Notes: generated by a model from the sequence alone, not told the origin. 64,000 nt of DNA from Candidatus Berkelbacteria bacterium (GCA_029865605.1 JAOUGE010000003.1:21797-85796); one strand, 5' to 3'; counted from the first letter of the stretch, positions 35,527-64,000 are shown. Numbers and translations: made by a program.

Positions 35527-35590
35527 TTAATTATGAACAGGCGCCTCGATGTCGAGGCGCCTGGATTCGCTCGCAGCCATACTGTCGGGC

Positions 35591-35935
35591 TCATCCCTTA
35601 GCAGGGGCACTGCCCCTCATCGAGGGCTCCCGCGGCTCAATGAAGAACCGGATTGCGGTGCGTTCGGCAGCCCCGATTTGAACATCGACAAACGCCGGGT
35701 AACACCAGATGTCCAGCCCTCCAGGGGACAGATAGCCGCGCGCGATGGCGATCGCCTTGACCGCCTGGTTAAGCGCTCCCGCCCCGATGGTCTGAACCTC
35801 CGCCCGGCGGCTTTCCCTGATACAGCCGGCAATGGCCCCAGCCACCTTGTTAGGATCCGACTTGGCCCCAACCTTGAGAACACCATCTTCGAACACTACT
35901 TCCGGCCGTTTCTCCTTTGTTCCTCTGCGTGGCAT
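35591..35935 (-). CDS. SpoVS-family (Alba-like fold) protein; high-GC gene
   Basis: ORF 35591..35992; start probably ATG at 35935 preceded by AGGAGGTG; ...KVGAKSDPNKVAGAIAGCIRESRRAEVQTIGAGALNQAVKAIAIARGYLSPGGLDIWCYPAFVDVQIGAAERTAIRFFIEPR matches SpoVS almost end to end; ~60%+ GC vs ~40% flanks. Confidence 0.7.
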   Translation of the reverse strand: MPRRGTKEKRPEVVFEDGVLKVGAKSDPNKVAGAIAGCIRESRRAEVQTIGAGALNQAVKAIAIARGYLSPGGLDIWCYPAFVDVQIGAAERTAIRFFIEPREPSMRGSAPAKG

Positions 35936-36080
35936 CGTGTGCCACCTCCTGCTGACTGGTGTGTATGTTGCTGCAATCGTTGCTGCGAGCAAAAAAAGCT
36001 TATCATAAAAATATCAGTTTGTCATCGAAGCTACCATTTAAAATTATTTAGCTTTTGCTATAATCCTTTTTTAGAGGAAA

Positions 36081-36695
36081 ATGACTGAAGAAGAATTATT
36101 TACCCAAGAAAAGGAAACGCCGGAAGAAACTAAAAAGCGCAGTTTTTTAGTCAACTTATTCTTTGGTTTTATCGATTTTATTAAAACGGTTGCCTTAATC
36201 ATTATTATCGCTTTCGCCATCAGGGTTTTTGCCGTCCAGCCCTTCATTGTTGAGGGTCAGTCTATGGAGCCAATGTTTAAAAACAACGATTATCTGATTA
36301 CAGAAAAAATCTTATATCGGCTAAAAGACCCTGCTAGAGGCGATGTTGTTATTTTTCACCCTCCAGAAAATCCCTCTATAAACTATATCAAGAGAGTAAT
36401 CGGGCTGCCGGGAGATGTAATCGAAATCAAAGATGGTAAGGTTTTTGTTAACAGCCAAGCCTTGAGTGAATCCTATGTTGACTCTTCAACTCTGCTTAAT
36501 CTGAAGTCCCCGCAAGCGCCGATCACGCTAAAATCCGGAGAATATTACGTTTTAGGTGACAACCGAAATCACTCAAGAGATTCGCGCGAAATAGGCGCAA
36601 TTCCAAAACAAAACATAGTTTCAAGGATTTGGTTCAGACTGCTTCCGCCGTCAAGCATAAGGATCTTTGCCCGGGTCAACTACGACACACCCTAG
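36081..36695 (+). CDS. lepB: signal peptidase I
   Basis: 204 aa; N-terminal TM; catalytic GQSMEP (Ser) and IKRVIGLPGD (Lys) boxes, GDNRNHSxDSR box. Confidence 0.85.
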   Translation: MTEEELFTQEKETPEETKKRSFLVNLFFGFIDFIKTVALIIIIAFAIRVFAVQPFIVEGQSMEPMFKNNDYLITEKILYRLKDPARGDVVIFHPPENPSINYIKRVIGLPGDVIEIKDGKVFVNSQALSESYVDSSTLLNLKSPQAPITLKSGEYYVLGDNRNHSRDSREIGAIPKQNIVSRIWFRLLPPSSIRIFARVNYDTP

Positions 36696-37759
36696 ATCTT
36701 CATTAGCTCTCTTACAAGAAGATTGAGATTCTCTTTAGATTTAGCCGAAATGGCAACAGCAGGAAGGCGAGACAAAAACTCGAACCTTGAAATGTTAGCT
36801 ATCTCATCAGCGGACTTTTCTTTTAAAAGATCAATTTTATTTAATACCAAAACCACTTTTTTGTTATTCTGAAGAGCCAGCTGAGCCAAATGAGCCTCTC
36901 CCCTCGTTAGGCCCTCAGACGCATCGGCCAAAATTAAAACTACATCGCTTGAAATAATTGCTCCGACAGACCTTAAAACGCTATACTTCTCAACTCCGGG
37001 AGTAATCTTCCCTCTGCGCCTAAAACCAGCGGTATCTATGAATTCAAAAGATCGCGACCTGTTCCCAAGCCTTACTTCATATTTTATGCTGTCACGTGTC
37101 GTGCCCGGAATATCGCTAACAATCGCTCTTTCAAATCCGACCAAGGCATTAAAAAGAGTCGATTTGCCAACGTTGGGACGGCCGACAATCGCAACTCGGG
37201 TAAGAGCCTTCTTTTCAACCTCAGCTAGGGGCAGCCTACTCGTGATCAAATCGAGAAGATTACCGCTTCTTCGGCCAGATATAGCTGAAACAGCCATTTT
37301 TTGCCGAAATCCTACGTCCCTGCTGGCTCGAACTAACTCTTCCGCCCTCATATTATCCGTTTTATTAAAAACCAATATTATTTTATCGGAGAGTTTCCTC
37401 AACCTCTTAGCAACCTGCATATCTCGAGCCGTTAGCCCCTCCTTAGCATCAACGACAAACAAAACAAGGTCGGAGCCTTCAAGAGCTGCGTCAATTTGAT
37501 CTTGGGCTTTCTTCTCAATCTCCTGCTCGCTAATGCCATAATAATCAGTCAAAAACCCGGCTGTATCGACCAAAATGAAGCCTTTCCCCTCCCATTCCAC
37601 TTTTTCAGCAACCAGATCACGGGTTGTTCCGGGCTTATGCGAGGTGATTGCCCGACGCTCACCGACTAATCTGTTAAAAAGGGTCGATTTGCCGACATTG
37701 GGTCTGCCAATAATTGAAACTATCGGTAGGTTTTTCATCTTTTGAGTTAATCTTATCAA
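36692..37759 (-). CDS. der: ribosome-biogenesis GTPase Der (EngA), two tandem G domains, no C-terminal KH domain
   Basis: 355 aa; two GRPNVGKSTLFN Walker A motifs and two DTAG motifs. Confidence 0.85.
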   Translation of the reverse strand: MIRLTQKMKNLPIVSIIGRPNVGKSTLFNRLVGERRAITSHKPGTTRDLVAEKVEWEGKGFILVDTAGFLTDYYGISEQEIEKKAQDQIDAALEGSDLVLFVVDAKEGLTARDMQVAKRLRKLSDKIILVFNKTDNMRAEELVRASRDVGFRQKMAVSAISGRRSGNLLDLITSRLPLAEVEKKALTRVAIVGRPNVGKSTLFNALVGFERAIVSDIPGTTRDSIKYEVRLGNRSRSFEFIDTAGFRRRGKITPGVEKYSVLRSVGAIISSDVVLILADASEGLTRGEAHLAQLALQNNKKVVLVLNKIDLLKEKSADEIANISRFEFLSRLPAVAISAKSKENLNLLVRELMKI

Positions 37760-37872
37760 AGAAGAATAGCACGGTTTAGACTAACTATCAACAGTCCCCA
37801 GTAAGATCAAATTCCGATATTGATTTCTGTTTCGGTTCCTGCTATGGTTTTAAAAACTTTCTGGTAAGCTTT

Positions 37873-39591
37873 ATGCCACTAGAAAAATCTTGCCGCCAGT
37901 GCAAGAACAGGTTCGTCATTGAAGATGATGAGTTAAAGTTTTTTTCAAAAATTTCCCCCCGGTTCTCAAATAAAACCTTCGAAATTCCCCCTCCGACTCT
38001 GTGTCCGGTCTGCCGTGAGATTCATCGGCTCATTCGCCGTAACGAAAGACATCTCTACAGCCGGAAATGCGACCTCTGCTCAAAACGAGTCGTCAGTATG
38101 TACTCAACCGGAAAGCCATTCCCGGTCTTTTGTCAAGAATGTTGGTGGGGCGGTAAATGGAACGCAAAAGACTATGGTGCAAAATACGAAAGCGGCTCTT
38201 TTTTTGAACAATTTAAGAAACTTTATAACAAGGTCCCCAAGGTCTGTGCCTCAATCATCAAAAGCACTAATTGCGACTTTAACACCTTTCTGGTTGATTC
38301 GAAAAATTGCTATATGACAACTTCATCAAGAGGAGAAAATTGCCTTTATTGCCGTAAGGTCGTTGATTGCCGTGATGTCGTTGACCTTCTTAACTCAAAC
38401 GAGTGCGAAAACTGCTATGAGACAATCAACTGCCATAACTGCTACGACTGCAATTTTGCAAATTTTTGCGAAAATTGTTCCAATTCGATGTTTTTATTTG
38501 CCTGCAAGGGTTGCCACAACTGTTTTATGAGCTCGAACCTGAACAACAAAAACTTCTATTTTTATAACCAGCCGCTTCCAAAGGAGGAATATTTGAAAAA
38601 GGTCAGCGAGCTCTGGAACGGCAGCTATAAAAGTCTAGAGAAACTAAAGGCGGAATACTTAGAACTTATTAAAGGCGCCACCCACAAAGAAAATACTAAC
38701 CGAAGAAGCGAGAATTGCTTAGGGAACGATCTTACAAACTGTAAAAATTGCCGGGACTGCTTTGAGATCAAAGACGGTGAAAACTGCATCTATGTTTACG
38801 ACAGCAAGGGCATAACCCCGCGCGACTCGATGGATTGCGATATGGGAGCTGGGGCCGAACTTTGCTACCAGCTTCTAAGCGGATATGTTGCCTATAGATG
38901 TATGTTCGGAGCGATCAATTATACTTCGAAAGATCTGCTCTACTGCTGCGATTGTTATGACAGTGATTTTCTTTTCGGCTGTGCTGGAATGAAAAATAGG
39001 AAATATTTTGTCTTAAACAGTGAGTATTCAAAAGAAGATTATGAAGAATTGGTCAGTAGAATAATCGCCGATATGATCGAGAATAAAGAATGGGGGGAGT
39101 ATTTCCCACTTGGCGACTCTACATTCGCTTACAATGAAGCCCTGGTTAGCATATATTTCCCTAAAACTAAACAAGAGGCTCAGAAAATCGGGGCGAACTG
39201 GCTTAATGACCACAAGGCAAAATATAAAGGGCCTTTTTATGAACCCTGCGACAGCATCTCCGACTACAAAAAATTCTCTCTCAAAAGAGACGAGCTTTTG
39301 CGAAGTGTAATCAGATGTCAGACCTCCGGCAGGCCGTTCAGAATAATCCCAAGGGAGCTCTCCTACTATATGGCAAACAATATTCCCATTCCACGCGAAC
39401 ATCCCGAAGCGAGATTTAAGAGAAGATTTTCGCTTCTTAACCCTCGCCAACTCTGGGAAAGAGATTGTATGTGCGAAGGCGAGTGCCTAAGGCACAGCGG
39501 GGAGTGCAAAACAAGGTTTAAAACGACCTATGCTCCAGAACGGCCAGAAAAGGTTTTTTGCGATAATTGCTATATTTATACGTTTAGATAA
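37873..39591 (+). CDS. large cysteine-rich protein (44 Cys), N- and C-terminal zinc-ribbon-like CxxC pairs, central tandem N-C-x2-C / C-x2-N-C repeats; function unknown
   Basis: 572-aa ORF with no recognisable SD; CRQC...CPVC, CDLC...CQEC, then NCYMT..NCLYC..DCRD..ECENCYETINCHNCYDCNFANFCENC..., C-term CMCEGEC...CKT...CDNC. Confidence 0.5.
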   Translation: MPLEKSCRQCKNRFVIEDDELKFFSKISPRFSNKTFEIPPPTLCPVCREIHRLIRRNERHLYSRKCDLCSKRVVSMYSTGKPFPVFCQECWWGGKWNAKDYGAKYESGSFFEQFKKLYNKVPKVCASIIKSTNCDFNTFLVDSKNCYMTTSSRGENCLYCRKVVDCRDVVDLLNSNECENCYETINCHNCYDCNFANFCENCSNSMFLFACKGCHNCFMSSNLNNKNFYFYNQPLPKEEYLKKVSELWNGSYKSLEKLKAEYLELIKGATHKENTNRRSENCLGNDLTNCKNCRDCFEIKDGENCIYVYDSKGITPRDSMDCDMGAGAELCYQLLSGYVAYRCMFGAINYTSKDLLYCCDCYDSDFLFGCAGMKNRKYFVLNSEYSKEDYEELVSRIIADMIENKEWGEYFPLGDSTFAYNEALVSIYFPKTKQEAQKIGANWLNDHKAKYKGPFYEPCDSISDYKKFSLKRDELLRSVIRCQTSGRPFRIIPRELSYYMANNIPIPREHPEARFKRRFSLLNPRQLWERDCMCEGECLRHSGECKTRFKTTYAPERPEKVFCDNCYIYTFR

Positions 39592-39594
39592 AAA

Positions 39595-40155
39595 TTATGC
39601 CGAGCGAACTCTGTTCAGAGTCCTAACCCACTTTTTATAAAAAGGTCTCGCAATCCTGCGGGCTTTCTCGAGTGTAATCCTGTCAAGCATAAAGTCGTAC
39701 TTTTCCCTTACCTGAACCTTCCCTATCCCCTTTTCGATCCAGCCCAAATGAATTCCGGCATTATTTTCAAAATAACTTATACTATCTGCATCCTTAATAA
39801 GATTTGATTCCTCGTCACCACCTGATTCGTGATGCGAAACCATGTTTTTAACCCTCATCGCAAACTTTTTTTCTGCGCCACAGCTGATTAGAAACTCGTA
39901 AATTTTATTTCCGGAGAGCTCTTCGTGCTTGCGCACATATCTTGGATCAACAATCTTCATTCCTCGAACGTAAAGGGGCAATCTATCAGGGGCGAAAGCC
40001 CTTCCAATGTCATGACCATACGCCGCAGCTTGCATCGCCTCGTCAGCATCAGGTTTTAATTGTAACAGCCAATAAACAGTCCTCTCAAAATGAGGCTTCT
40101 TGGAGCCAAATGACTTATCCACATATTCTCTAATTTTTTCCAAATTCCTCAACAT
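39595..40155 (-). CDS. HD-domain phosphohydrolase
   Basis: 186 aa; H...HDIGR...HHESGG...DADSISY metal-binding motif set (H, HD, H, D). Confidence 0.65.
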   Translation of the reverse strand: MLRNLEKIREYVDKSFGSKKPHFERTVYWLLQLKPDADEAMQAAAYGHDIGRAFAPDRLPLYVRGMKIVDPRYVRKHEELSGNKIYEFLISCGAEKKFAMRVKNMVSHHESGGDEESNLIKDADSISYFENNAGIHLGWIEKGIGKVQVREKYDFMLDRITLEKARRIARPFYKKWVRTLNRVRSA

Positions 40156-40262
40156 TTGAACTAAAATATAACAGACGGAGAGAAATAAGTTAAGCCTCTC
40201 GCCTCGAAAATAAATAGAAATCCTTGAGAAAACCCTAACTTTAAGATAAACTGATCTAGTAT

Positions 40263-40336
40263 TCCGGACTCGTCTAATGGCAGGACAGCGGCCTTTGAAG
40301 CCGTGAATCTACGTTCGAATCGTAGGTCCGGAGCCA
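40263..40336 (+). tRNA. tRNA-Gln (anticodon UUG)
   Basis: Hand-folded: acceptor TCCGGAC/GTCCGGA, D-arm GTCT-AATGGCA-GGAC, anticodon arm GCGGC-CTTTGAA-GCCGT, T-arm CTACG-TTCGAAT-CGTAG, discriminator G, encoded CCA. Confidence 0.75.
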
Positions 40337-40349
40337 AATTTAAAAAATT

Positions 40350-41357
40350 ATGTCAAAAACAGTTCAAGATAATATGAATAAAAAAGTCTTAATCATCGGC
40401 GGAACAGGGTTTATCGGCTATCACGCAACTCTTGAATTTCTAAAAGAAGGTTACGAAGTATCAATCATTACTCTGCCCCCTGAGATCAAAAAAGGCCTAT
40501 TACCCGAGAGAGTTAAAATAACCTATTCCGACCTAAATAAAATTAGCGACCAGCAAACAATCAAAGCTATCAAAGGCAATGATTCCGTTGTCTTTGCCGC
40601 AGGGGCGGATGACCGCATCACTCCCCAAAAGCCGGCTTACCGGTTTTTTTATGACGCCAATGTTAAATCGGCCAAAAGATTTTTTGAGCTTGCTCAAAAA
40701 GCCGGGGCCAAAAGGGGCGTTCTTTTCAGCTCTTATTTTGCCTACTTTGCCCGCGTTTGGCCGGAAATGAAACTCGACCGCCATCACCCCTATATTCGCA
40801 GTCGAGTCGTTCAAGAAAGCGAAGTAATATCAGTTTGCAACAAAGGGCTTGAAGTAATGGTCCTCGAGTTTCCTTATATTTTCGGTGCTGCACCCGACAA
40901 AAAACCTCTTTGGTGTCCCCTACTCTCCTACCTTGAAAAGACCCCCTACGTCTTTTACACCCGCGGCAGTACTAACTGCGTTTCGGTTAAAACGGTTGCT
41001 CGGGCTGTTGTTGGCGCCATCAAAAATGGAAAAGCCGGGGAACGGTACGTAATTGGCGACCAAAATCTCACCTGGAAAGAAATGCTAAGCGGGCTAATGA
41101 AAGCGATGGGAATAAGAAAAAAAATTATCATCTTGCCGAACATAATGGCAAAAATAGGCGTTTTATCTCTTTTAATAAAACACAAGCTTCAAGGCAGAGA
41201 GGGTGGCTTAAGTCCAATCAAATTCGTTAATCTCCAGACAAGAAATACCTATTTTAAGGCTTCTTTGGCTCAAAAAGAGCTTGATTTTGAAGGAGGAGAT
41301 TTGGAAGAAGCTTTTTCTCAAACCGCAAAAGCCTGCGCGAATATTTACCCCACATAG
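40350..41357 (+). CDS. NAD-dependent epimerase/dehydratase family protein (SDR fold)
   Basis: 335 aa; N-terminal Rossmann VLIIGGTGFIGYH. Confidence 0.75.
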   Translation: MSKTVQDNMNKKVLIIGGTGFIGYHATLEFLKEGYEVSIITLPPEIKKGLLPERVKITYSDLNKISDQQTIKAIKGNDSVVFAAGADDRITPQKPAYRFFYDANVKSAKRFFELAQKAGAKRGVLFSSYFAYFARVWPEMKLDRHHPYIRSRVVQESEVISVCNKGLEVMVLEFPYIFGAAPDKKPLWCPLLSYLEKTPYVFYTRGSTNCVSVKTVARAVVGAIKNGKAGERYVIGDQNLTWKEMLSGLMKAMGIRKKIIILPNIMAKIGVLSLLIKHKLQGREGGLSPIKFVNLQTRNTYFKASLAQKELDFEGGDLEEAFSQTAKACANIYPT

Positions 41358-41426
41358 ACCCTTGTGTCAAAACTTGAAAACGCTAATAATAAAAACACAT
41401 CCTAATTTAAAGACACAAGGAGGTCT

Positions 41427-41591
41427 ATGGAAAAGTGCGAAAAATGCGGCATGCCAATGGAAGAGGGCGAGTGCTGTTCGTGCCGCCCCAGTAGGTGTTA
41501 TCACTGCTGTAAATGCGAAGACGGCTGTAGCTGTAACTGTACTAACCGCGAATTGCGCGAAATAGAAGAAGAAAAAGAAAAGAAAGAATAA
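41427..41591 (+). CDS. small cysteine-rich metallothionein-like peptide (54 aa, 13 Cys) with acidic C-terminal tail
   Basis: Not in ORF track (<60 aa). AAGGAGG SD 6 nt upstream of ATG; MEKCEKCGMPMEEGECCSCRPSRCYHCCKCEDGCSCNCTNRELREIEEEKEKKE. Confidence 0.5.
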   Translation: MEKCEKCGMPMEEGECCSCRPSRCYHCCKCEDGCSCNCTNRELREIEEEKEKKE

Positions 41592-41635
41592 TTTAGAAAT
41601 TATAAAACCGGCTCGGATATACCTTAATCGTCTGT

Positions 41636-42424
41636 TTGGATATGGCATACAACCCACCCAGAAAATACAATCTATTTGACCCAACTTCTTCAAAACCATT
41701 CTCTCTAAGCCGGGGGAAAATTGAAAATTTCCTCAAATGCCCAAGGTGTTTTTACTTGGATAGACGGCTGGGAATTGACCGGCCGCCGCTCCCCGGCTTT
41801 TCCCTAAACGTTGCTGTTGATCAACTGATGAAAAAAGAGTTTGACATTTTAAGAAAATCAAAAAAAAGACACGAACTAATGAAAAAATTCAAGATTGACG
41901 CTGTCCCCTTCGATCACCCCGATATTATGGTTTGGCGGGACGATATCAAAAAATTCGAGGGGGCAAACTTTTTGCACAAGCAAACTAATTTGAAGATATG
42001 CGGAATAATTGACGATGTTTGGATAAATCCGACGAGTAAACTCCATATAGTCGACTATAAGTCAACCAGTACTTCGCGTGAAATCTCGCTAGAGGATGAA
42101 TATAAACAAACTTATAAAAAACAAATTGAGCTTTATCAATGGATATTCAGACAAAACGGTTTCAAGGTCTCGGATATCGGCTATTTCGTTTTCGCCAACG
42201 CGAAAAAAACGCCGGAAAAATTCGATGGAGTCCTTGAGTTCGAAATGCAAATCATCTCCCATAAGGGAGACGACTCCTGGGTTGAAAAAACAGTTTTCGA
42301 GATCAAAAAATGTCTAATGTCGGACACCCTACCCTCGTCTACTGAAAGGTGCGAATATTGCGCTTACCGAAAAGCGTCCAAACCCTTTGACCAAAAAGCT
42401 ATTCAAGGAAGCCTAGGGATCTAA
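41636..42424 (+). CDS. PD-(D/E)XK nuclease, Cas4/RecB-like with four-Cys cluster
   Basis: 262 aa; GIIDDV...IVDYKST (D...D/E-x-K), QIELYQW (QxxxY), Cys pairs CPRC (N-term) and CEYC (C-term) as in Cas4 Fe-S nucleases; no cas genes or array nearby. Confidence 0.6.
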   Translation: MDMAYNPPRKYNLFDPTSSKPFSLSRGKIENFLKCPRCFYLDRRLGIDRPPLPGFSLNVAVDQLMKKEFDILRKSKKRHELMKKFKIDAVPFDHPDIMVWRDDIKKFEGANFLHKQTNLKICGIIDDVWINPTSKLHIVDYKSTSTSREISLEDEYKQTYKKQIELYQWIFRQNGFKVSDIGYFVFANAKKTPEKFDGVLEFEMQIISHKGDDSWVEKTVFEIKKCLMSDTLPSSTERCEYCAYRKASKPFDQKAIQGSLGI

Positions 42425-42462
42425 CCGAATCTTCCTAAGAAAAAAATGAAAGAGGAGGACAT

Positions 42463-42975
42463 ATGGCAAAAATCGTGATGGTTATTGCACCGGAGAACTT
42501 TCGTGACGAAGAGTACTTCAAGCCGAAGGAAATCCTTGAGTCAAATGGGCACGAGGTCATCACTGCCTCAAAAGAGATCAATCAAATCAGGGGCGTCGGG
42601 GGTGGAACAGCCAAAGCAACAGTCAAGGTGATGGATTTAAGCCCTTATGATTATGAGGCAATAGTTTTTATTGGCGGGCAGGGCATGCAAGAATTTACTA
42701 ATGATTCCGACCTTAAGGCAGCAGCTAAAAAATTCTACGATGCAAAAAAACTGACAGCAGCAATCTGCATCGCTCCAGCGATTCTGGCCAACGCCGGAAT
42801 CCTCTCCGGCAAAAAAGTAACTTCTACCCCGAGTGCTATCGAAGTCCTTAAAAAAGCCGGCTCTAATCACACCGGAAGTCTAGTCGAAGTCGATGGCCAA
42901 ATCATTACCGCCAGCGGCCCCGACGCCGCCGAAGAACTTGGTAACAAAATTGCCGAGATATTAAAACCCAAATAA
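42463..42975 (+). CDS. DJ-1/PfpI family protein (class I glutamine amidotransferase-like)
   Basis: 170 aa; nucleophile elbow AICIAPAILANAG; strong SD GAGGAGG. Confidence 0.8.
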   Translation: MAKIVMVIAPENFRDEEYFKPKEILESNGHEVITASKEINQIRGVGGGTAKATVKVMDLSPYDYEAIVFIGGQGMQEFTNDSDLKAAAKKFYDAKKLTAAICIAPAILANAGILSGKKVTSTPSAIEVLKKAGSNHTGSLVEVDGQIITASGPDAAEELGNKIAEILKPK

Positions 42976-42995
42976 GAACGCTTTTCTAAAAGTCT

Positions 42996-43029
42996 GGGGG
43001 TTGACAAGCATCGGTCTTGTAATTATCAT
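42996..43029 (+). promoter_or_regulatory. putative strong sigma70-type promoter (GGGGG-TTGACA, 17-nt spacer, TATCAT)
   Basis: GGGGGTTGACAagcatcggtcttgtaatTATCAT; predicted TSS ~43036-43039. Confidence 0.55.
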
Positions 43030-43038
43030 CATTACAAG

Positions 43039-43163
43039 ATGAGAAACCTCAAACACCACAAGAAGCTGCAAAAGAGATCTCTCATCCAAGAGGCCATCAC
43101 GGCCTCGTTTTTGTATCAGGGCCCTTAAGGGTCCCAAACGCTCCCTGAGAGGGAGGTGAATCG
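43039..43163 (+). promoter_or_regulatory. 5' leader: leaderless 29-codon uORF (43039..43128) containing a terminator-like hairpin, followed by two GC hairpins, the last overlapping the SD of the downstream gene
   Basis: ATG at predicted TSS; uORF MRNLKHHKKLQKRSLIQEAITASFLYQGP; GAGGCCatcacGGCCTCgttttt (43090..43112); GGGCCCttaaGGGTCC (43118..43134); CTCCCtgagaGGGAGgtg (43141..43158) then ATG 43164. Confidence 0.35.
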
Positions 43164-43808
43164 ATGGACCAGCGGGTCGAAGAAGCGCTTAGGGCGCTAG
43201 AAGACAGCCTCCGACTCCACCTGGATCATTACACCTCGAATGAGATCGCACTCATTCATAGAGCAATGCACACCGCTGTCACCTGGCAAGGCACACGCAC
43301 GCGTCTCTCGGGCACACCGGCCTGGGCCCACACGCTCGCAGTAGGCAACGACCTAATCGCGCTCGGCGCCGATGCCGACCCGATCGTCGCCGGTTACCAT
43401 CACGACGACTTGGAGGACCTCGGCAAAACAGCCGAAGATCTGTGCACACTCTATGGCCCCGAAGCCGCCGGGCTGGTGGTTGCCCTGACCAAGACTGTCG
43501 AGGACACCTATATCGCCCAGCTGATACGCGAGGGACATGTCAACTGGTGGGTGCTGCTGATTAAGGCCGTTGACCGGCGCCACAACATTCGAACAGTCGC
43601 CGGCTTCAAACTCAACAAGCAGGAAGAGTATGCCCACGAAACCCGAGCTCTGGTCGCCGTCCTGCGCATTGGCAGCATCTGGGTCCCCGCCGAGTGGCAA
43701 GAGCGCTACCACGGCATCCTCGACGAATCGCAAGGGCTTGCCCGACAAGTCCTCGCCTCGATCGAAGCCGGGCGCCGTACGAACCCCACCCTCCCCCTCC
43801 TGTTCTAG
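43164..43808 (+). CDS. small alarmone hydrolase-like HD protein (RelA/SpoT-type (p)ppGpp hydrolase domain only); high-GC gene
   Basis: 214 aa; RLSGTPAWAHTLAVG (RxSGxPYxxH), GYHHDDLEDLG (HDxxED), LVVALTK, LIKAVDRRHNIRTV (KLADRxHNMRT); no synthetase domain; ~60% GC. Confidence 0.75.
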   Translation: MDQRVEEALRALEDSLRLHLDHYTSNEIALIHRAMHTAVTWQGTRTRLSGTPAWAHTLAVGNDLIALGADADPIVAGYHHDDLEDLGKTAEDLCTLYGPEAAGLVVALTKTVEDTYIAQLIREGHVNWWVLLIKAVDRRHNIRTVAGFKLNKQEEYAHETRALVAVLRIGSIWVPAEWQERYHGILDESQGLARQVLASIEAGRRTNPTLPLLF

Positions 43809-43953
43809 GCCTCGCTGCAGTGCCAGAAGGCAAAAGCAGCGGGGCCTTCGCGATTTTTAAAACCAAGGGGGTTGACAAGAAAGCTTTTTTGTCTTAAACA
43901 AGACTGCTATAATTATTTTGCTATGTTAAGTAGCTTGAGAGGAGGTGATCAAA

Positions 43954-44175
43954 ATGGACGAAGAAAAAGACGAAACAACGGACGAAACAACAGAAGAAAA
44001 AGACGATAAAGAGCCCACTGGTGTAGTTGATACAGCAGCCGATACAGAGGAGGAACCTGCTGTAGGAGGCGGTGCTTCTTGGGGTTCGGGCGGTACTGAT
44101 GACGACGATGGGGATGACGAGGGCGATGAAGAAGAAAAACCAGCTGGCGAGGAAGAGAAGAAAGAAAAGGAATAA
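43954..44175 (+). CDS. hyper-acidic low-complexity small protein (73 aa, D/E/T-rich)
   Basis: GGAGGTG SD 6 nt before ATG 43954 (track lists GTG 43945); MDEEKDETTDETTEEKDD...DDDDGDDEGDEEEK...; followed by a canonical terminator. Confidence 0.5.
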   Translation: MDEEKDETTDETTEEKDDKEPTGVVDTAADTEEEPAVGGGASWGSGGTDDDDGDDEGDEEEKPAGEEEKKEKE

Positions 44176-44211
44176 GGCAAAGAGTAAAATAACTGATTTA
44201 ACCATCAAAAA

Positions 44212-51920: not shown

Positions 51921-53083
51921 ATGAAAATCGCCATCTTCACTGAATGCTACGAGCCCGTAATCACTGGCGTGGTTCACTCCATCGAATCTACAAAAAAAGG
52001 GCTTGAAAGTCTCGGGCATCAAGTGTTTATAATCACACCTGATTATGGCAAAAAAAACCTCAAAGACGAGGGGATTATCCCCTGTCCCAGCATCCCTCTT
52101 GGCTCAACCGGCTATCATTTCGTTTATAGTTTTCCCCTAAAAGCCCGCCGGATCGCCGAAGAGGCTGACATACTTCATACTCATCACCCGTTTACGCTAG
52201 GCCAAAGGGCGAGAAAAATAGCCAGAGGGCAAAAAAAACCGTTACTTTTTACTCATCATACCCAATACGATCAATATCTTGCCTATGTGCCAATTGCTAA
52301 GAAGCTGGCCAAAAAAGTCCTCTACGGCTACTTAAAAAGCTTCTGCGACCAAGCAACATTAATAATTGCCCCGTCAGAAAGCATTAAAAGGAAAATTAAG
52401 GCTTATGGCGCAGAAACCCCTATCGAAACAGTCCCAAACGGCGTTGAAATAGAAAAATTCAAAAGAAAAACATTGCTATCCCGCCAGAACTAAAACAGCT
52501 GCCGGAGGACGAAAAAATCGTCATTTTTGTCGGCAGGGTTTGCTATGAGAAAAAAATCGACTTTGTAATACGAGCCTTTAAAAAAGTCGTTGGGGAGGCA
52601 CCAAAAACCCGACTTCTGATAGTCGGCGGCGGACCAGCTTTTGATGAATTCAAAAAATTATCCGAGTATCTAGGAATCGCTAAAAATGTGACTATGACCG
52701 GTGTAGTCCCTTTCACTAAAATCCCCGGTTACTTTAGACGAGCTGATATTTTTGCTTCGGCTTCAAAAACCGAGGTTCACCCGATGGTAGGAATCGAAGC
52801 AATGGCCTCGGGACTACCTATTGTCGCCCTAGATTCGGTTGGTTATCGCGATATTGTCGAGAGGGGAAAGACAGGCCTAATTGCTCAAGAAAACCTTAAC
52901 GACTTTGCCTCAAAAATTGTCGAGCTAGTCTCAAACAAAGAAAAGTTCGAGCGCATGAAAAAGAACTCCTCTATATCCTCAAGAAAATATTCTATCGCAG
53001 CAACTTCCAAAAATATGCTAGCGACTTATCAGCGCGCCCAGCAACTTATAAACGGGCTCGAACAGGATAGTAAAAACGACTAA
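51921..53083 (+). pseudogene. glycosyltransferase family 4, disrupted by a -1 frameshift in an A-run (~52461..52470)
   Basis: GT4 N-domain in frame 0 (51921..52493) and C-domain (ExFGxxxxEAMAxGxPVVA) in another frame (track ORF 52688..53083, open back to 52463); hand translation gives continuous ...KFK(K)NIAIPPELKQLPEDEKIVIFVGR... Confidence 0.6.
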
Positions 53084-57739: not shown

Positions 57740-59501
57740 CCTGCCGGAAGTCGTTCCAGTCAAGCTATTAGCCGAAGAGCTAGAAGCTTCTCCTGCTTTA
57801 ATTGTAAAAAAATTACTGGAAATGGGGGTTCTGGCGACCATTAACGAAAGCGTCGATTTCGACACGGCAGCAATCGTTGCCGATGAATACGAAGTTTCTG
57901 CCGAACGCAAAAAAGATGAAACTGATATTGAGCTCGAAGAAAGCTCAAAATACACGGCTTACGACAGACCTCCCGTTGTAACGGTTATGGGCCACGTCGA
58001 TCATGGCAAAACAAAACTTCTTGATGCAATTAGAAAAACTAATGTCATTGAGACAGAGTCGGGCGGAATCACTCAACATATTGGAGCCTACAAGACAAAA
58101 ATATCAATGAAAGAAAGAAAAAAGACAATCGACCGAGAAATGACTTTCATTGATACCCCTGGGCACGAGGCCTTCTCGGCTATGCGAGCCCACGGGGCAA
58201 ATATCACCGATATTGTAATTTTAGTAGTCGCCGCAGATGAAGGTGTAAAACCCCAGACAATTGAAGCAATAAGCCACGCCAAAGCCGCTAAAGTCCCTAT
58301 CATTGTCGCGATTAACAAAATTGATAAACCGGAAGCTGATCCCGACCGAGTAAAAAGAGAACTGTCCGAGCAAAAATTAATCCCAGAAGAGTGGGGAGGC
58401 AAAACACCAATGGTTCCGGTTTCTGCCAAGGAAGGCAAGAATATAGACGATCTTCTAGAAACCGTCATCCTAACCGCCGATCTCGAAGAGCTTAAAGCAC
58501 CAACCGATGGGCCCGCCCGCGGAATGGTAATCGAATCTAAAGTCCAGTCCGGTAAGGGCGCGACTGCGACCGTAATCATCCAATCTGGAACACTCAAGCC
58601 CTCTGACGTCATAGTTAGCGAAGGAGAATATGCGAAAGTGAGATTTATCGAAGATTGGCGCGGAAAAAGAGCCCAAACAGCCCATCCTTCCGACCCTGTC
58701 CTTGTAGCTGGATTTAAAAAGCCGCCTAAAGTAGGCTCCCAGATAAGATCGGTTAAATCAGAAAAAGCAGCCCGCCAAATAGCTGAAAAGACAAGAAGGG
58801 ATAATTCGGTAAAATCCCTTTCAAGTAAAGGAACTGGTCTTGGCGAGGTTTCAAAAGTCGCCAAAGAGGAAGGTATTAAAGAGTTGAGGCTTATTATCCG
58901 AGCCGACACAAAGGGTTCTCTCGAGGCTATAAAAAGCGGTTTATCCGAAGTTTCAAGCGATTTTGTTAAAATCTCCGTCATTTCCGAGGGGGTTGGAGCC
59001 GTAACCGAATCCGACATTAATCTTGCCTCAGCCAGCCTAGCTGTCGTTTTAGCTTTTAGAGCTTCTGTCCCCCCACAAGTAATGCGCTTAGCCGACGAGA
59101 AGAAGATAAAAATTTCAAAGTACGAAATAATTTACGAACTTATTGATGATATCTTTGCTGCTTTAGAGGGAATGCTGGAACCAGAAATCGTAGAAACGGT
59201 TTTGGGTAAGCTTGAAGTGGTGAAGGTATTTTTCAAACAGCATAACCGAGGAATCATCGGCGGTAGAGTTATATCAGGAAAAATCTCGCCAGGAACAAAA
59301 ATAACCGTAACGAGAAATGGCCAGCCGATTGGCGAGTTAAAAACGGAGAGTATTAAAATAGGCGCCCAAACCGTTAACCAAGTCACAGACAAAAAAGAAT
59401 GTGGTATAAGCTATTTAGGAACAGTTAAGTTGAAGCCGAAAGATATTCTAGAATTTGTTTTAGTTGAAGAAAGACTAAGATCTCTCAAGAAAAAAATATA
59501 G
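57708..59501 (+). CDS. infB: translation initiation factor IF-2
   Basis: 597 aa; G domain [25 protein letters not shown]; overlaps gyrA end by 32 nt. Confidence 0.9.
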   Translation: MPQTQEKKKISLPEVVPVKLLAEELEASPALIVKKLLEMGVLATINESVDFDTAAIVADEYEVSAERKKDETDIELEESSKYTAYDRPPVVTVMGHVDHGKTKLLDAIRKTNVIETESGGITQHIGAYKTKISMKERKKTIDREMTFIDTPGHEAFSAMRAHGANITDIVILVVAADEGVKPQTIEAISHAKAAKVPIIVAINKIDKPEADPDRVKRELSEQKLIPEEWGGKTPMVPVSAKEGKNIDDLLETVILTADLEELKAPTDGPARGMVIESKVQSGKGATATVIIQSGTLKPSDVIVSEGEYAKVRFIEDWRGKRAQTAHPSDPVLVAGFKKPPKVGSQIRSVKSEKAARQIAEKTRRDNSVKSLSSKGTGLGEVSKVAKEEGIKELRLIIRADTKGSLEAIKSGLSEVSSDFVKISVISEGVGAVTESDINLASASLAVVLAFRASVPPQVMRLADEKKIKISKYEIIYELIDDIFAALEGMLEPEIVETVLGKLEVVKVFFKQHNRGIIGGRVISGKISPGTKITVTRNGQPIGELKTESIKIGAQTVNQVTDKKECGISYLGTVKLKPKDILEFVLVEERLRSLKKKI

Positions 59502-59554
59502 TCGTAAGGTTCTTCAAAATCCATTCTCGCAGCCGTTCTATAAGGTGTGAGGGG

Positions 59555-59582
59555 TTGACAGATAAGGTCATTCAAGTAAAAT
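59555..59582 (+). promoter_or_regulatory. putative promoter (GGGG-TTGACA, 16-nt spacer, TAAAAT)
   Basis: GGGGTTGACAgataaggtcattcaagTAAAAT; ATG 59598 lies ~15 nt downstream of the -10 with no SD. Confidence 0.45.
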
Positions 59583-59597
59583 GGTTCGCAGTCGTAC

Positions 59598-59840
59598 ATG
59601 ACTGAACAAACCGAGCCTCCCCTCTTACAAAGACGGCTCATAAAAACAAAAAATCCCTTAACAAAGAGCTTTGAAGCAATCTCCGAAATATTAAAAGAGG
59701 CGAAGAAGCTCTTATTTAGGTCCGCTTCGACCAACAATATTGGAAAGAAGCTGATCATAAATATCGGTCTTCTTTTTCTAATAGTCTTAATCCCCTCGAT
59801 CTCCGAATATGCTACAAACTATCAACTTATTCCAGCCTGA
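59598..59840 (+). CDS. small protein with C-terminal TM anchor (possibly the detached N-terminal anchor of the downstream peptidase)
   Basis: 80 aa; cytoplasmic N-term then LIINIGLLFLIVLIPSI helix. Confidence 0.35.
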   Translation: MTEQTEPPLLQRRLIKTKNPLTKSFEAISEILKEAKKLLFRSASTNNIGKKLIINIGLLFLIVLIPSISEYATNYQLIPA

Positions 59841-59941
59841 GACAGCTCACCGATCCATTAGATCCGAAAAAAGCCGGTGAGTTAGCAGAATCTCTCGACC
59901 TATACACCAGCGGAGTTAACGAAAACCCCGACGAAGTTGCT

Positions 59942-60711
59942 TTGGCGCTCATGCTTAAAGACGATACCTATACTCTATCTCAACAGCTTTCTGTAAACGC
60001 CGGCAAAGAGATCAATGAGCCGCAAAGGGTAGAGGCAACCTATACTGTAAAGCAAGGCGAAACGATAACCCAAATCGCCCAAAAATTTGACCTTCATGTT
60101 GGCACAATTCTCGAAGCAAATAAAATTCCAGCCGAACAGTCAAAAATAATAAAGCCGGGAACGATTCTAAAAATTCCCTCTTCAGACACCGTCACATCAA
60201 GCGACTGGCTGGTAACCCTAAACCGCGCCGAGGAGGCCGAGAGAAAAGCCGCCGAGCAGAAAAGGCAGGAGGAGCTAAGAAAACAGCTCGCAAAACGGGG
60301 GCGCGCCTACGCCGCTTCTTCATATTCTTACAGCTCGGGCGGATATGCCGGGGTCGACAGAAGCGGCCTTATTGTCCCTATTAGCCACAATGGAATAAGC
60401 CGGGGCTTTAGCTGGGGACACAGCGGAATTGATTACCGAGCCAATGTCGGCACGCCCGTCCGCGCAGCTGCTTCCGGAGAGTAATCCAAATAAGCGGTGG
60501 TTGGTCCGGGGGGTACGGAAACCAAATGCTAGTTGATCACGGCGGGGGTCGGGTAACAAGATATGCCCACCTATCTTCATTTACCGTCGGGGTTGGCCAA
60601 ACAGTTGGCCAGGGACAAACAATCGCTTATTCTGGAAACACCGGGCGCTCCACTGGTCCGCACTTGCACTTTGAACTTATCGTCGGCGGGCGACCAGTCA
60701 ATCCATTCTAA
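59942..60711 (+). pseudogene. LysM-domain M23 peptidase, split by a frameshift at ~60478..60485
   Basis: LysM (YTVKQGETITQIAQKF...) in ORF 59942..60484; M23 catalytic motifs ([14 protein letters not shown], then [12 protein letters not shown]...YAHL...[15 protein letters not shown]) continue in another frame (60526..60711); hand translation across the junction gives ...[25 protein letters not shown]... Confidence 0.65.
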
Positions 60712-60782
60712 AAATAACACCAGGATATAGAATTAAGAATAAAGGATAATAAATAAGAACATCATAAAATCTCGATTCTTAA

Positions 60783-61757
<975 letters not shown>

Positions 61758-61804
61758 ACTTGGCTGGTTTTTTTGCAATCTTTAGGTTGGTTGTAAACTT
61801 TTAG

Positions 61805-63532
61805 ATGATCGCTCAAATATATTTAAAAAGAAAAACGAAACTCGATAAGCCGTTTGATTACGAGATTCCCCGCGGTATGAAAATCAAGAAATTCTCCCTG
61901 GTTGAAATAGAGTTGGGAACGAAAAAAACGATCGGCCTTGTCTGGGGCTTTAAAGATAGATCCCCCTATAATTTAAAAAAAATATCTAGGGTTTTATCTG
62001 CCGGTCCTGCCCTTACGCCAAATCAGTTAAAACTCGCGCATCTGATTTCCGATGAATACTTATCGACGTTAAGCGAGTCAATATTCTCTTTTCTCCCTAA
62101 ATTAAACATCCGCGACTTAAATAAAATAGGCTCAGAGGCCAAACACGCTAGGCGACAAAAACAAGAGAAAATGCTGCTAATCGCCGAGGCTTCCCAAAGA
62201 CTACTATTTTTTTGCCAGAAAATGCAGTTAGGCCAAAATCTAGCCGTGTTTCCTACAATCCACAGGGTTGAAGAAGCCTCCCGAGCCATAAAAAGATTAA
62301 ACCCTAAGCTTCAAGTTTACACCTGGCACAGCAAGCTTGAAAGCTACCAAAAAGCGAAAATCTGGCAAGATTTAATTTCAGATAAAAATAATATTGCTGT
62401 GATAGGAACAAGGCACTCATTATTACTCCCTTTTGTTTCGCTCAAGTCAGCCTATATTGATGAGCCAACCAGCTTTGCCTACCAAGAGGATCAAGCGCCA
62501 TATTACAACGCCTACAAAGTAGCCAGAACTCTTGCCGGCATATTTGGTGCTGATTTAATTATCGGTGAATCCTCCCCTGACATACTCTCGTTTGTTGCTC
62601 TGTCAAAAGGAGAGCTCAAGATAAAAGAAACCAAACCAGCGCTCGACTTTGAAATCCGTGACGGTTGGGAAAATTTCCTAAAAGATGCCCAAAACATAAA
62701 GAGTCTAAAGCCTAACTCAAAAATCTGCGTCATCGGCCCCTGGAAAAATCAGGCGAGGCTTCAATGTTCCGACTGCAAAAGCGAAATCACCTGCCCTAAC
62801 TGCCAAAACCCATTTTTTGAGGAGAACAGCTTTTCCTGCACTAAGTGCAAAAAAAATTATAAAAAAAGTCTTTGCTCAAAATGCGGGGGAGCAAATATTC
62901 AAAAAACCGGCTTTCTCTATTCTAAAATAATAAACGATCTAAAAGCGGTTTTCCCTCAAGCCTTAATTACGGCTAATCCAAAAGCATTTTCCAAATCTCA
63001 TATTGCCGTCACCTCAATCAATGAGCTGGACCGCCTCGATCCAATTTTCGAAACTGCCTTAATCCCCTACTTTATCGAGATGGCCAATTTCCCCTATCTA
63101 AACTTCAGAGAAAAATTATTCCAGAAAATCTGGGGGTTAAGTTCGGCCGGGGTAAAAAAAATCTACCTTTTCGGTGAAAGTCTAGGACAAGATCGTTTTA
63201 CTAGGCAGTTAACCACTAACAATTGGAAGGCGTTTTTAAAGGAAGAAATTGAAGAAAGAGCAAAGCTTAAGCTCCCCCCTTTTAGTAAGTCGGTCATGCT
63301 GGTAGTCAAGTGCCAAACGCCCGAAATTTGCGAAAAAATCAGCCGTGATGTGTTATCAAAAATTAAAATAACGGCCAACACCTATCCTTACGGTCAAGAC
63401 GCAAGAGCAGGAAAATTTACCCAAAAAACGCTATTGACCTTCCCCCACAAAGAGTGGCAAAAATACAAAGTTCTTTTGAAAAATACAAATCCCGATTTTC
63501 ACTTTGAGGTAGATCCGGTGGAATTTAGCTAG
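61805..63532 (+). CDS. priA: primosomal protein N' (PriA)-like with degenerate Walker A/B motifs
   Basis: 575 aa; PriA N-terminal 3' DNA-binding-like region, AVIGTRHSLLLPF and C-terminal Cys cluster (CSDCKSEITCPNC...CTKCKK...CSKCGG); no GxGKT/S P-loop; DEPTS replaces DEEHD. Confidence 0.7.
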   Translation: MIAQIYLKRKTKLDKPFDYEIPRGMKIKKFSLVEIELGTKKTIGLVWGFKDRSPYNLKKISRVLSAGPALTPNQLKLAHLISDEYLSTLSESIFSFLPKLNIRDLNKIGSEAKHARRQKQEKMLLIAEASQRLLFFCQKMQLGQNLAVFPTIHRVEEASRAIKRLNPKLQVYTWHSKLESYQKAKIWQDLISDKNNIAVIGTRHSLLLPFVSLKSAYIDEPTSFAYQEDQAPYYNAYKVARTLAGIFGADLIIGESSPDILSFVALSKGELKIKETKPALDFEIRDGWENFLKDAQNIKSLKPNSKICVIGPWKNQARLQCSDCKSEITCPNCQNPFFEENSFSCTKCKKNYKKSLCSKCGGANIQKTGFLYSKIINDLKAVFPQALITANPKAFSKSHIAVTSINELDRLDPIFETALIPYFIEMANFPYLNFREKLFQKIWGLSSAGVKKIYLFGESLGQDRFTRQLTTNNWKAFLKEEIEERAKLKLPPFSKSVMLVVKCQTPEICEKISRDVLSKIKITANTYPYGQDARAGKFTQKTLLTFPHKEWQKYKVLLKNTNPDFHFEVDPVEFS

Positions 63533-63538
63533 GTCGGG

Positions 63539-63573
63539 CGGGGCGGACACGCGCTTGCGCGCGTGCCGCCCCG
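63539..63573. terminator. 15-bp GC-rich hairpin between convergent genes (possible bidirectional terminator; no flanking T-run)
   Basis: CGGGGCGGACACGCGC-ttgc-GCGCGTGCCGCCCCG with one bulge. Confidence 0.4.
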
Positions 63574-63589
63574 TGTGCGAGCTGGCCCG

Positions 63590-64000
63590 CTAGGGCCGCT
63601 CGCGGATGACCACCTTCATCGACTCGGTCCACATGAGAGTGGGGTCCTTGATAGACCAGACGAGCGCGACCACATTGGCCGCGCCTCTGCCCTCGATCGT
63701 ATCGCCGACTACCCTGAGAGGCTCACCGGCATCGAGAACAAATCGAAAGCCTTCGGGAGCAGCAGTGAGCTTGGTCCGCTCACCGTCTGCCTCCTTCCGG
63801 TACCAATCCACCCAGACCTTCACAACCTGATCCGGGCGGGTGGCGTCATAGATCCGGAAGCTGCACCCGAAGACAGATGGGTGCAGAACACACGCCCGCG
63901 CCTCCGGAGTGACGGGAGTGCACATCTGCCCCTCGTTGAGGCGGACCTTGTCCCACCTCCCCGTCTTCTCCACTTCGAGGATCTCAGCGCCCGGGGGTTG
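63590..64000 (-). CDS. hypothetical protein, high-GC gene, 5' end beyond the window
   Basis: ORF 63590..63973 (127 aa from first Met); frame stays open to the window edge; ~65% GC; Ala/Arg/Gly/Val-rich; no recognisable motifs. Confidence 0.4.
   Translation of the reverse strand, partial: QPPGAEILEVEKTGRWDKVRLNEGQMCTPVTPEARACVLHPSVFGCSFRIYDATRPDQVVKVWVDWYRKEADGERTKLTAAPEGFRFVLDAGEPLRVVGDTIEGRGAANVVALVWSIKDPTLMWTESMKVVIRERP

Follow-up and report, generated by a model that had tools for sequence, protein, structure and literature searches.

Three short islands rich in guanine and cytosine (GC), each holding a single gene, stand in the AT-rich backbone of a 64,000-nt stretch of a Candidatus Berkelbacteria metagenome-assembled genome (MAG), which we refer to as a whole as the window and whose lineage we denote W. 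The islands encode a SpoVS-like protein (island 1), a predicted alarmone hydrolase of the HD_4 family (island 2), and an orphan protein with features of secretion (island 3). We consider it probable, though well short of certain, that these are three independent one-gene units with three histories, not acquired together, and that a non-neutral force specific to the gene sustains the high GC of island 2 and, probably, island 1. For islands 1 and 3 the evidence supports recurrent foreign origin at different times; in island 2 (and probably island 1) the GC-rich, C- and G-ending codons appear to be upheld by this force and not to be a fading relic of transfer. Coordinates, gene families, occurrence in relatives, synteny and the composition in every lineage are observed directly, whereas the force is our inference. 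The departure from the standard picture is a deviant composition that persists in orthologues, most clearly in those of the HD_4 gene.

Three GC-rich islands in an AT-rich backbone

NCBI annotation of the encoded proteins places the window in a Candidatus Berkelbacteria MAG, in keeping with an earlier interpretation made from the DNA alone (the sequence-only reading), which had raised the possibility of a candidate phyla radiation (CPR) lineage. Overall GC is 42.8%, and in 300-nt windows across the stretch the mean is 0.427 with a standard deviation (SD) of 0.047. On this scale only seven segments reach 0.53 or more, three of which are the reported islands at 35351-36000 (peak 0.647), 43051-43950 (peak 0.63) and 63401-64000 (peak 0.64), with peaks 4.3-4.6 SD over the window mean. 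Across 75 open reading frames (ORFs) of the window, islands counted in, GC at third codon positions (GC3; GC1 and GC2 are the first and second positions, and GC4 refers to four-fold degenerate sites) is 0.425 ± 0.079, and the three island genes, with GC of 0.61-0.62 and GC3 of 0.67-0.77, fall outside the range of the recipient ORFs. Both the existence of three single-gene islands and their position beyond the genome's normal range, which the sequence-only reading had proposed to check by sliding-window GC and GC3, are thus borne out. Each island carries one gene, and the high GC spans the 5' untranslated region (UTR), the coding sequence (CDS) and a GC-rich terminator hairpin.

The remaining peaks comprise the RNase P RNA (28791-29131), two mild peaks within gyrB/gyrA, and the M23 domain of a LysM/M23 gene (60151-60700, peak 0.58). 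In this domain, GC1 and GC2 are ~0.58, with Gly, Ala and Arg codons, and GC3 is only 0.46-0.64; because the excess sits in GC1 and GC2, the peak reflects amino-acid composition, is of a different kind from the three islands and serves as a control. Amino-acid composition as the sole cause of the islands is ruled out by their GC3 and GC4. One common donor for the islands was also rejected, since base use at four-fold sites differs among them (chi-square p = 0.004), with HD_4 distinct from the other two. Rfam (E <= 1) revealed no known RNA elements within the islands except the tRNA, and the PADLOC defence-system library gave zero matches for the three island proteins.

The island junctions of the window recur in Logan contig SRR7132115_128241 (52 kb) and in the European Nucleotide Archive (ENA) MEGAHIT contig ERZ27296335 k141_229558 (173 kb), the latter of which reaches beyond the window and shows island 3 complete; GC-rich orthologues in the same gene context were found in at least seven other samples. 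A chimera is excluded for practical purposes because two other assemblies, made with different assemblers, carry identical junctions. An artefact of assembly or binning, in which high-GC reads were joined into a low-GC contig, is accordingly of negligible probability: the gene-in-context layout repeats in those further samples, the island genes lie within short intergenic distances of native promoters, and nothing was found in its favour, although the window consensus is imperfect. Compared with the same population's ENA contig, the window has three single-base deletions, at 52460, 59827 and 60478; these frameshift two backbone genes, for a glycosyltransferase and a LysM/M23 peptidase (405 and 371 aa, respectively, in the ENA contig), and are either consensus errors or strain-level pseudogenes. 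The earlier description of the islands as expressed-looking and domesticated, not assembly debris, agrees with these junctions, with the single-gene organization and with a ratio of nonsynonymous to synonymous substitution (dN/dS) of ~0.2.

Island 2: a predicted alarmone hydrolase gene that is GC-rich in five lineages

The gene of island 2 (43164..43808, plus strand; 214 aa, GC 0.616, GC3 0.73) matches the HD_4 family PF13328 with 43.8 bits against a cut-off of 27.2, and its product aligns to positions 1-144 only of TIGR00691 (spoT_relA), with no synthetase domain. The protein aligns with the hydrolase half of 5XNX, and the HD, ED and DRxHN motifs are conserved (H...HD..ED...K.DR.HN). The product is predicted to be a stand-alone RelA/SpoT-type HD hydrolase akin to the small alarmone hydrolases (HD_4; 5XNX, 1VJ7, 7QOC, 3NQW), with which it shares a length of ~200 aa, the presence of an HD domain only and the catalogue of motifs. 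It differs from these known enzymes in its strong divergence (best outside match E 8e-31, with ~30% identity), in its confinement to one Berkelbacteria clade and in its fast evolution, and its gene differs in standing behind a conserved leader that contains an upstream open reading frame (uORF) and a terminator and belongs to no Rfam family. Purifying selection acts on the gene (dN/dS ~0.2).

A word-indexed search of 5.8e9 proteins yielded three members of this family only: the protein itself, P0002 (84% identical) and P0003 (64%). The genes of the latter two have GC of 0.575 and 0.609 and GC3 of 0.64 and 0.69, respectively, amid flanks of 37-47% GC, and share a PDDEXK-DJ-1-HD_4-acidic-protein context. 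In a profile search of 1.84 billion representatives no close outside relative appeared; the best matches were P0125 (8e-31), P0126 (5e-23) and P0131 (1e-16), and P0126 and P0131 belong, as syntenic orthologues, to L103 and L105, two deeper Berkelbacteria-like lineages in which PDDEXK is followed by HD_4 and a tiny acidic protein, and further on by RNase HII and Bac_transf. No relatives of HD_4 were found in viral contigs. The order PDDEXK, (DJ-1), HD_4 and small acidic protein is kept in W and in four relatives (L004, L005, L103 and L105), and an empty site was not encountered, HD_4 being present in five of the five lineages recovered.

Between W and L004, HD_4 is 84% identical at the amino-acid level and PDDEXK 97%; the corresponding pair of values is 65% and 78% (DJ-1) for L005, 30% and 51% (PDDEXK) for L103, and 28% and 53% (PDDEXK) for L105, and L103 and L105 share 50% in HD_4 and 76% in PDDEXK. 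Because HD_4 and flank identities rank the lineages alike, HD_4 was inherited with its neighbours, although it evolves ~2x faster than they do. The composition of the gene is deviant throughout: GC3 is 0.64-0.73 and GC4 0.63-0.79 in the five lineages, compared with a GC4 of 0.35-0.53 in flanking genes. In L103, HD_4 has a GC of 0.547 and a GC3 of 0.654 against flank GC3 of 0.29-0.37, and in L105 the values are 0.552 and 0.706 against 0.17-0.43. Four-fold sites of HD_4 in the five lineages carry C at 0.40-0.55, G at 0.19-0.25, A at 0.13-0.21 and T at 0.08-0.20. Since the gene is inherited with its flanks and is GC-rich in five lineages, its composition is not readable as the un-decayed signature of a recent transfer. 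HD_4 would instead be an old resident of the clade, inherited vertically with its own promoter, a leader-peptide/terminator leader and a hairpin that sequesters the ribosome-binding site (RBS).

The region upstream of HD_4 points in the same direction. A native-type promoter, TTGACA-17-TATCAT (43001..43029, plus strand), is preceded by a GGGG motif, as at other promoters of the window, and is followed on the same strand by a structured leader (43039..43163; fold z = -3.2). The leader comprises a basic uORF of 29 codons (43039-43128) within hairpin 1, a hairpin resembling a terminator together with a U-run (43090-43113), a further hairpin (43119-43134), and a hairpin at ~43141-43156 that pairs with the RBS GGAGGTG (43152-43158), all on the plus strand. 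This layout is common to W, L004 (1613-1775), L005 (2521-2681), L103 (3845-4000) and L105 (717-850), with promoters composed of TTGACA, 17 nt, and TATCAT or TAATAA. Its elements begin within ~10 nt of the promoter, and the uORF is near-leaderless, basic and 16-29 codons long, encoding MRNLKHHKKLQKRSLIQ... in W, MTRSKNTKHKYNRATLVT in L103 and MTRTKHNKRMRATLVS in L105. The uORF hairpin shows compensatory changes (GAUGAGA/UCUCAUC versus GACGAGA/UCUCGUC), and no Rfam family matches the leader. Judged from these features, it looks like a leader-peptide attenuator, and the conservation of such an attenuator-like leader supports the view that the island 2 unit is old and wired into native control.

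The native style of this promoter, already claimed in the sequence-only reading, is also apparent from GGGGTTGACA, which is found exactly at five window sites (16849, 28771, 42997, 43868 and 59551) and with at most one mismatch at 10 sites, against a chance expectation of 2.3; it resembles an extended -35 element of promoters in W. Downstream, HD_4 ends in a terminator formed by a GC-rich hairpin and a T-run (43809..43860, plus strand), and the next native promoter (GGGGGTTGACA) begins at 43866. A 26-nt direct repeat around the island (42983-43008 and 43854-43879) was considered as a target-site duplication and set aside, being more simply two copies of a native promoter: the GGGGTTGACA part of the repeat recurs at other promoter-like sites of the window, and the upstream copy of the repeat is not conserved in L005.

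The history of the gene includes recombination. Over CDS nucleotides 172-450 (window 43335-43613; 280 nt), W and L004 are only 68% identical, a distance that matches that of either from L005, and the gene ends together with 3.5 kb of flanks are 94-97% identical between the two. Because the 68% tract sits within such similar surroundings, recombination has occurred inside island 2, and the tract is an imported allele segment. A diversity-generating retroelement was considered as the cause of this mosaic, and the gene lists contain no reverse transcriptase.

Two further features of the locus may be recorded. Directly downstream of HD_4 there is always a tiny, very acidic protein (41-73 aa, rich in D and E) with its own promoter (window 43954-44175; L004 2672-2887; L005 3460-3669; L105 1622-1747). 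L004 also has two ~95-nt insertions resembling miniature inverted-repeat transposable elements (1513-1607 and 2489-2582) in opposite orientation, with terminal inverted repeats CCCCTTACTAAA / TTTAGTAAGGGG; each interrupts a GGGGGTTGAC promoter motif, the pair brackets the HD_4 unit, and the window has no copies.

Island 1: a SpoVS gene inserted beside tRNA-Val

The SpoVS gene (35591..35935, minus strand; 114 aa, GC 0.614, GC3 0.67) has a GGAGGTG RBS at 35943..35949 (minus strand) within a GC-rich 5' UTR that extends to ~35990, and with its UTRs the island has a fold z of -2.6. Residues 19-99 of the product match PF04232 (E 3e-35, 120.2 bits against a cut-off of 24), and the protein aligns with structure 2EH1 at E 1.5e-22; the family calls of the sequence-only reading, SpoVS-like here and SpoT-type hydrolase for island 2 (HD_4/TIGR00691), were therefore sound. 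Like Bacillus SpoVS and the Thermus structures 2EH1 and 2EK0, the protein has the PF04232 domain; it differs in that its gene is isolated, outside the rny-ymdB-spoVS operon and convergent with a tRNA, in that its CPR lineage does not sporulate, and in a basic N-terminal extension of 18 aa (MPRR...) that is specific to Berkelbacteria.

As had been noted from the sequence, the island directly follows a tRNA: tRNA-Val(CAC) (35450..35526, plus strand) abuts it, convergent with SpoVS, and the same adjacency is found in L007 and L008. Between the tRNA and the SpoVS stop codon lies a perfect 12+12 GC-rich hairpin (35538..35563), conserved in L007, which is probably a bidirectional terminator. Syntenic SpoVS orthologues occur in three JGI contigs (L006-L008; 71% amino-acid identity) and in a Logan contig (L009; 64%), with a divergent S26 peptidase gene beside SpoVS and, in L007 and L008, the convergent tRNA-Val and then a dksA-like gene. 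In these contigs, SpoVS has GC of 0.58-0.60 and GC3 of 0.65 between flanks of ~41% GC. Three lineages, with SpoVS proteins 64-71% identical, retain the gene in GC-rich form. L103, whose flank proteins are 50-60% identical to those of W, has dksA, tRNA-Val and S26 without SpoVS. There, at 321-457, the final 21 nt of tRNA-Val (CAAATCCAGCCGGGTGCACCA) are duplicated 95 nt downstream with a GC-rich remnant between the copies, an att-like scar that identifies the tRNA-Val site as a hot spot of integration.

This locus has turned over repeatedly. Upstream of the functional tRNA, which differs in sequence from the tRNA of L007 (~70% identical), lies a GC-rich element with a cloverleaf-like fold (35340..35440, plus strand; z = -4.2) that resembles the tRNA-Val of L007 and L103. 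It has a 16-nt hairpin insert and an anticodon loop UUUACCU (UAC), lacks the 3' acceptor strand, receives no call from ARAGORN or Rfam, and is probably a decayed tRNA-Val copy. Island 1 resembles tRNA-targeted islands in abutting the 3' side of tRNA-Val, in the 21-nt duplication of L103 and in a serine recombinase at tRNA-Asp in a second Berkelbacteria MAG (L019, discussed below), and differs from them in its size of ~460 nt and its one gene. SpoVS would have been inserted beside tRNA-Val after the L103 lineage split off and before W, L006 and L009 diverged; the import is an old one.

The nearest SpoVS outside Berkelbacteria shares 84% identity across the conserved core. The nearest carriers have genomes of 65-67% GC and the canonical (rny-)ymdB-spoVS-DUF1015 context, the named members of their group are Armatimonadota, and SpoVS of W nests among sequences from genomes of 65-68% GC in which the rny-ymdB-spoVS context is kept. 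In 33 genomes from a scan of species representatives, SpoVS GC outside Berkelbacteria lies within 0.13 of genome GC, mostly within 0.09, and GC3 falls as low as 0.14 in Clostridium. The exception is L019, in which SpoVS has 62.8% GC and a GC3 of 0.72 between flanks of 37% GC, an excess of 0.26. This SpoVS is of a different type, 89% identical at the amino-acid level to that of a MAG of Candidatus Hebobacteria, a class of Armatimonadota; it neighbours tRNA-Asp and a serine recombinase gene, and tRNA-Gly(CCC) and tRNA-Thr(CGT) come after it. In the same region (L019 1791-3454 and 4370-4518), the recombinase gene (542 aa) overlaps the 3' end of tRNA-Asp and is adjoined by a GIY-YIG gene.

In neighbour-joining trees of 81 core columns, W-type SpoVS and Armatimonadota-like sequences form an exclusive clade (bootstrap 62-67%, moderate support), L019 groups with Hebobacteria and L030 (86%), and L019 falls outside the W-type clade (89%). 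On these relationships, the SpoVS donors were most likely Armatimonadota-like; the source of the W-type gene would be an Armatimonadota-like high-GC bacterium, the basic N-terminal extension having been gained later. The actinobacterial donor that the sequence-only reading had offered as an example finds no support, as SpoVS points to Armatimonadota and no donor is detectable for HD_4 or island 3. W-type copies share derived states, namely Ile in AGA-I-AG, a residue other than Ser at core position 5, and the MPR... N-terminal extension, and these shared states are better explained by a single acquisition with rapid divergence thereafter than by repeated replacement.

Island 3: an orphan gene between priA and a glycosyltransferase gene

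The window contains the C-terminal 136 codons of the island 3 gene (63590..64000, minus strand), whose stop codon is at 63590 and which runs off the window; in the ENA contig the full gene encodes 187 aa and starts from an ATG that lies beyond the window, at the position equivalent to 64153. A GC-rich hairpin at its 3' end (63541..63572) lies directly after the priA stop codon. The GC-rich block measures ~670 nt (equivalent 63533 to ~64204), amounts to ~730 nt of extra DNA, and is followed in the ENA contig by the backbone genes GT4 (glycosyltransferase), def, fmt and rpsP at ordinary GC. Gene GC is 0.624, with GC3 (0.76) > GC1 (0.66) > GC2 (0.45). The RBS is GAGGAGG, so the GGAGGTG site previously ascribed to all three islands holds for SpoVS and HD_4 but not here. 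The order GC3 > GC1 > GC2 and the RBS indicate a real protein-coding gene with a history of evolution at high GC. Its N-terminus, hydrophobic and with ...PASCG at the end, resembles a signal sequence or lipobox, and the product is predicted to be secreted or lipoprotein-like.

A JGI metagenome scan with PriA recovered four relatives with the order obg-priA-GT4-def (L094-L097). In L094, L095 and L097 the site is empty, with only 25-37 nt between the priA stop and the GT4 start and no GC peak; PriA and GT4 are 66% and 88% identical, respectively, between L094 and W. The priA/GT4 gap is a recurrent insertion site. The island 3 protein has no homologue among 5.8 billion clustered proteins, no match in phage, plasmid or viral-contig collections, and no Pfam, NCBIfam or PADLOC family match, in line with its earlier listing as an unknown protein. 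A single-sequence AlphaFold model was unusable (predicted local distance difference test score 37), and the fold z of the island is -4.4 (20 shuffles only). Foreign origin is the best reading of island 3, which would represent a recent, lineage-specific insertion between priA and the glycosyltransferase gene from an unsampled donor. In L096, an unrelated 808-aa lipoprotein gene of ordinary GC (4023-6449) occupies the same gap.

Probable maintenance of the deviant composition

The idea of recurrent acquisition from a high-GC donor thus stands for islands 1 and 3, given their empty sites and the nesting of SpoVS, and is not supported for island 2, which is old and has no detectable donor. Decay of composition toward the recipient was not observed at any divergence: GC3 stays at 0.64-0.73 in HD_4 (five lineages) and at 0.65-0.72 in SpoVS (four lineages). 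For HD_4, an un-ameliorated relic is untenable because synonymous sites are saturated at such depth and yet GC-rich in five lineages. For SpoVS, a Hasegawa-Kishino-Yano (HKY) model was started from donor-like composition and calibrated on flanking genes, whose four-fold identity in the W-L006 comparison is 0.42 (n = 148), the backbone four-fold equilibrium GC4 being 0.455 (n = 4165). It predicts a GC4 of 0.56-0.60 if the transfer occurred at the W-L006 split, the minimum age, and of 0.47-0.49 at 3x that age (the ratio of S26 dN, W-L009 : W-L006). The observed values in the four lineages are 0.69, 0.65, 0.69 and 0.71, each ± 0.06, which disfavours neutral decay of SpoVS.

Plain horizontal gene transfer (HGT) from high-GC donors, with neutral and incomplete amelioration at all three islands, is consequently unlikely. 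Island 3 does fit this account, with its three empty sites, lack of homologues and highest GC3, and SpoVS is not far from it, as its GC4 of 0.65-0.71 equals that of the nearest donor-like genes (0.65-0.69, L099 and L102) and lies within ~2 standard errors (SE) of the neutral expectation at minimum age; polarised changes also lean strong-to-weak. However, HD_4 is GC-rich in five lineages that have saturated synonymous sites and flank proteins only ~50% identical, it diverges in step with the flanks, it keeps a conserved regulatory leader and it lacks a donor, and SpoVS retains a GC3 of ~0.65 in L009 despite an S26 dN 3x that of the W-L006 pair. Continual renewal could in principle deny these genes the time to ameliorate, with repeated xenologous replacement of the same genes by a high-GC partner, such as an Armatimonadota host. 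Two Berkelbacteria lineages do carry two SpoVS types, both nearest to Armatimonadota sequences, and every W-type SpoVS is nearer to the Armatimonadota-like consensus than to its syntenic orthologues. We nevertheless hold such refreshing to be very improbable, since the W-type derived states are missing from donor-like sequences, which indicates a single acquisition and fast divergence, HD_4 has no outside relative at all, and the donor-like genes are only 72-77% identical at the nucleotide level.

GC-biased gene conversion (gBGC) at recombination-prone loci, whereby allelic exchange among Berkelbacteria would drive weak-to-strong fixation and raise both GC and the rate of protein substitution, is a candidate because recombination occurs inside island 2. 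The 280-nt tract separating W from L004, the roughly twofold faster evolution of HD_4 relative to its neighbours and the inclusion of UTRs besides the CDS in the GC-rich domain all agree with it. As the explanation it is nonetheless decidedly unlikely: a single tract was seen, L004, the lineage that differs in the tract, has the lower GC, and the four-fold excess is mainly C for T on the coding strand (C 0.40-0.55, G 0.19-0.25), where symmetric conversion predicts otherwise. The operation of gBGC in bacteria is itself debated. Translational optimization was rejected, as the genes for EF-Tu, EF-G and ribosomal proteins prefer T-ending codons, with a C/(C+T) of 0.34 versus 0.62-0.78 in HD_4. The gene-specific force that we favour could be selection on a transcript or DNA property (mRNA stability, non-preferred codons) or a fixation bias tied to recombination; as the GC-rich domain and the transcript share the same extent, our preferred guess is selection acting on a feature of the mRNA (stability, low AU, non-preferred codons).

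Several points weigh against this reading of the islands. The amelioration test uses 55-69 four-fold sites per gene with time scaled by the dN of one flanking gene, and at minimum age the neutral GC4 of SpoVS is only ~1.5-2 SE under the observed values. Polarised third-position changes run strong-to-weak over weak-to-strong at 9:5, 9:5 and 6:3 (22:2 in L004), and the first three counts are too few to separate equilibrium from slow decay. The HD_4 CDS has an unremarkable fold z of -0.6, and fold z-scores are mixed across the islands (SpoVS with UTRs -2.6, HD_4 -0.6, island 3 -4.4). With respect to origins, HD_4, for which no donor is detectable, offers no support for a foreign origin; no att repeat and no integrase lie around SpoVS in W or L007 (for the integrase, within 10 kb in W), a further contrast with tRNA-targeted islands; and the SpoVS tree has 81 columns with moderate support, so that GC-driven amino-acid convergence with high-GC SpoVS could inflate the affinity to Armatimonadota.

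Relation to known patterns of gene transfer

In the amelioration model of Lawrence and Ochman, compositionally atypical acquired genes are said to converge to the composition of their host. The islands resemble the genes of that model as single genes with deviant GC and GC3, with GC3 > GC1 > GC2, one of them beside a tRNA, and islands 1 and 3 also in having empty sites in relatives. They depart from it in the deviant composition that their orthologues retain in diverged relatives, which in the case of island 2 extends down to ~50% flank identity.

A survey of Patescibacteria MAGs from groundwater described individually transferred genes or small islands that are mostly old (mean 23.7% divergence) and derive from other phyla, with Omnitrophota, Bacteroidota and others as donors and no mention of Armatimonadota or Berkelbacteria, and assumed that ancient transfers lose their GC signature (PMC12455944). 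Islands 1 and 3 are further cases of such HGT in Patescibacteria, whereas the persistence of composition is the opposite of that assumption (PMC12455944). In the literature we found nothing on GC-rich genes or SpoVS in Berkelbacteria, and no link between Armatimonadota and Berkelbacteria.

Implications for Berkelbacteria and the CPR

Deviant GC is routinely taken to signal recent transfer, old transfers being assumed to become invisible. Because HD_4 keeps a GC3 excess of ~+0.3 everywhere it was found, composition-based HGT calls in CPR genomes can mis-date transfers or mistake maintained composition for foreign origin. The uORF/terminator leader before a predicted alarmone hydrolase gene suggests that expression is coupled to translation status, in organisms for which little is known of how the stringent response is wired. 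The two Armatimonadota-like SpoVS imports provide a concrete, checkable lead on the partners of Berkelbacteria.

As a broader picture, to which we lean only tentatively and with a little less than even confidence, the clade may hold a few short units at ~55-62% GC through a gene-specific force, rich in C- and G-ending codons that its highly expressed genes avoid, and the two independent SpoVS imports may mark Armatimonadota as a long-term partner, possibly a host. If composition is indeed maintained, these units would offer a natural test case for a GC-favouring force, be it mRNA or codon selection or biased conversion, and would imply that a gene-specific selective or conversion-driven force acts on nucleotide composition within an AT-rich, streamlined genome.

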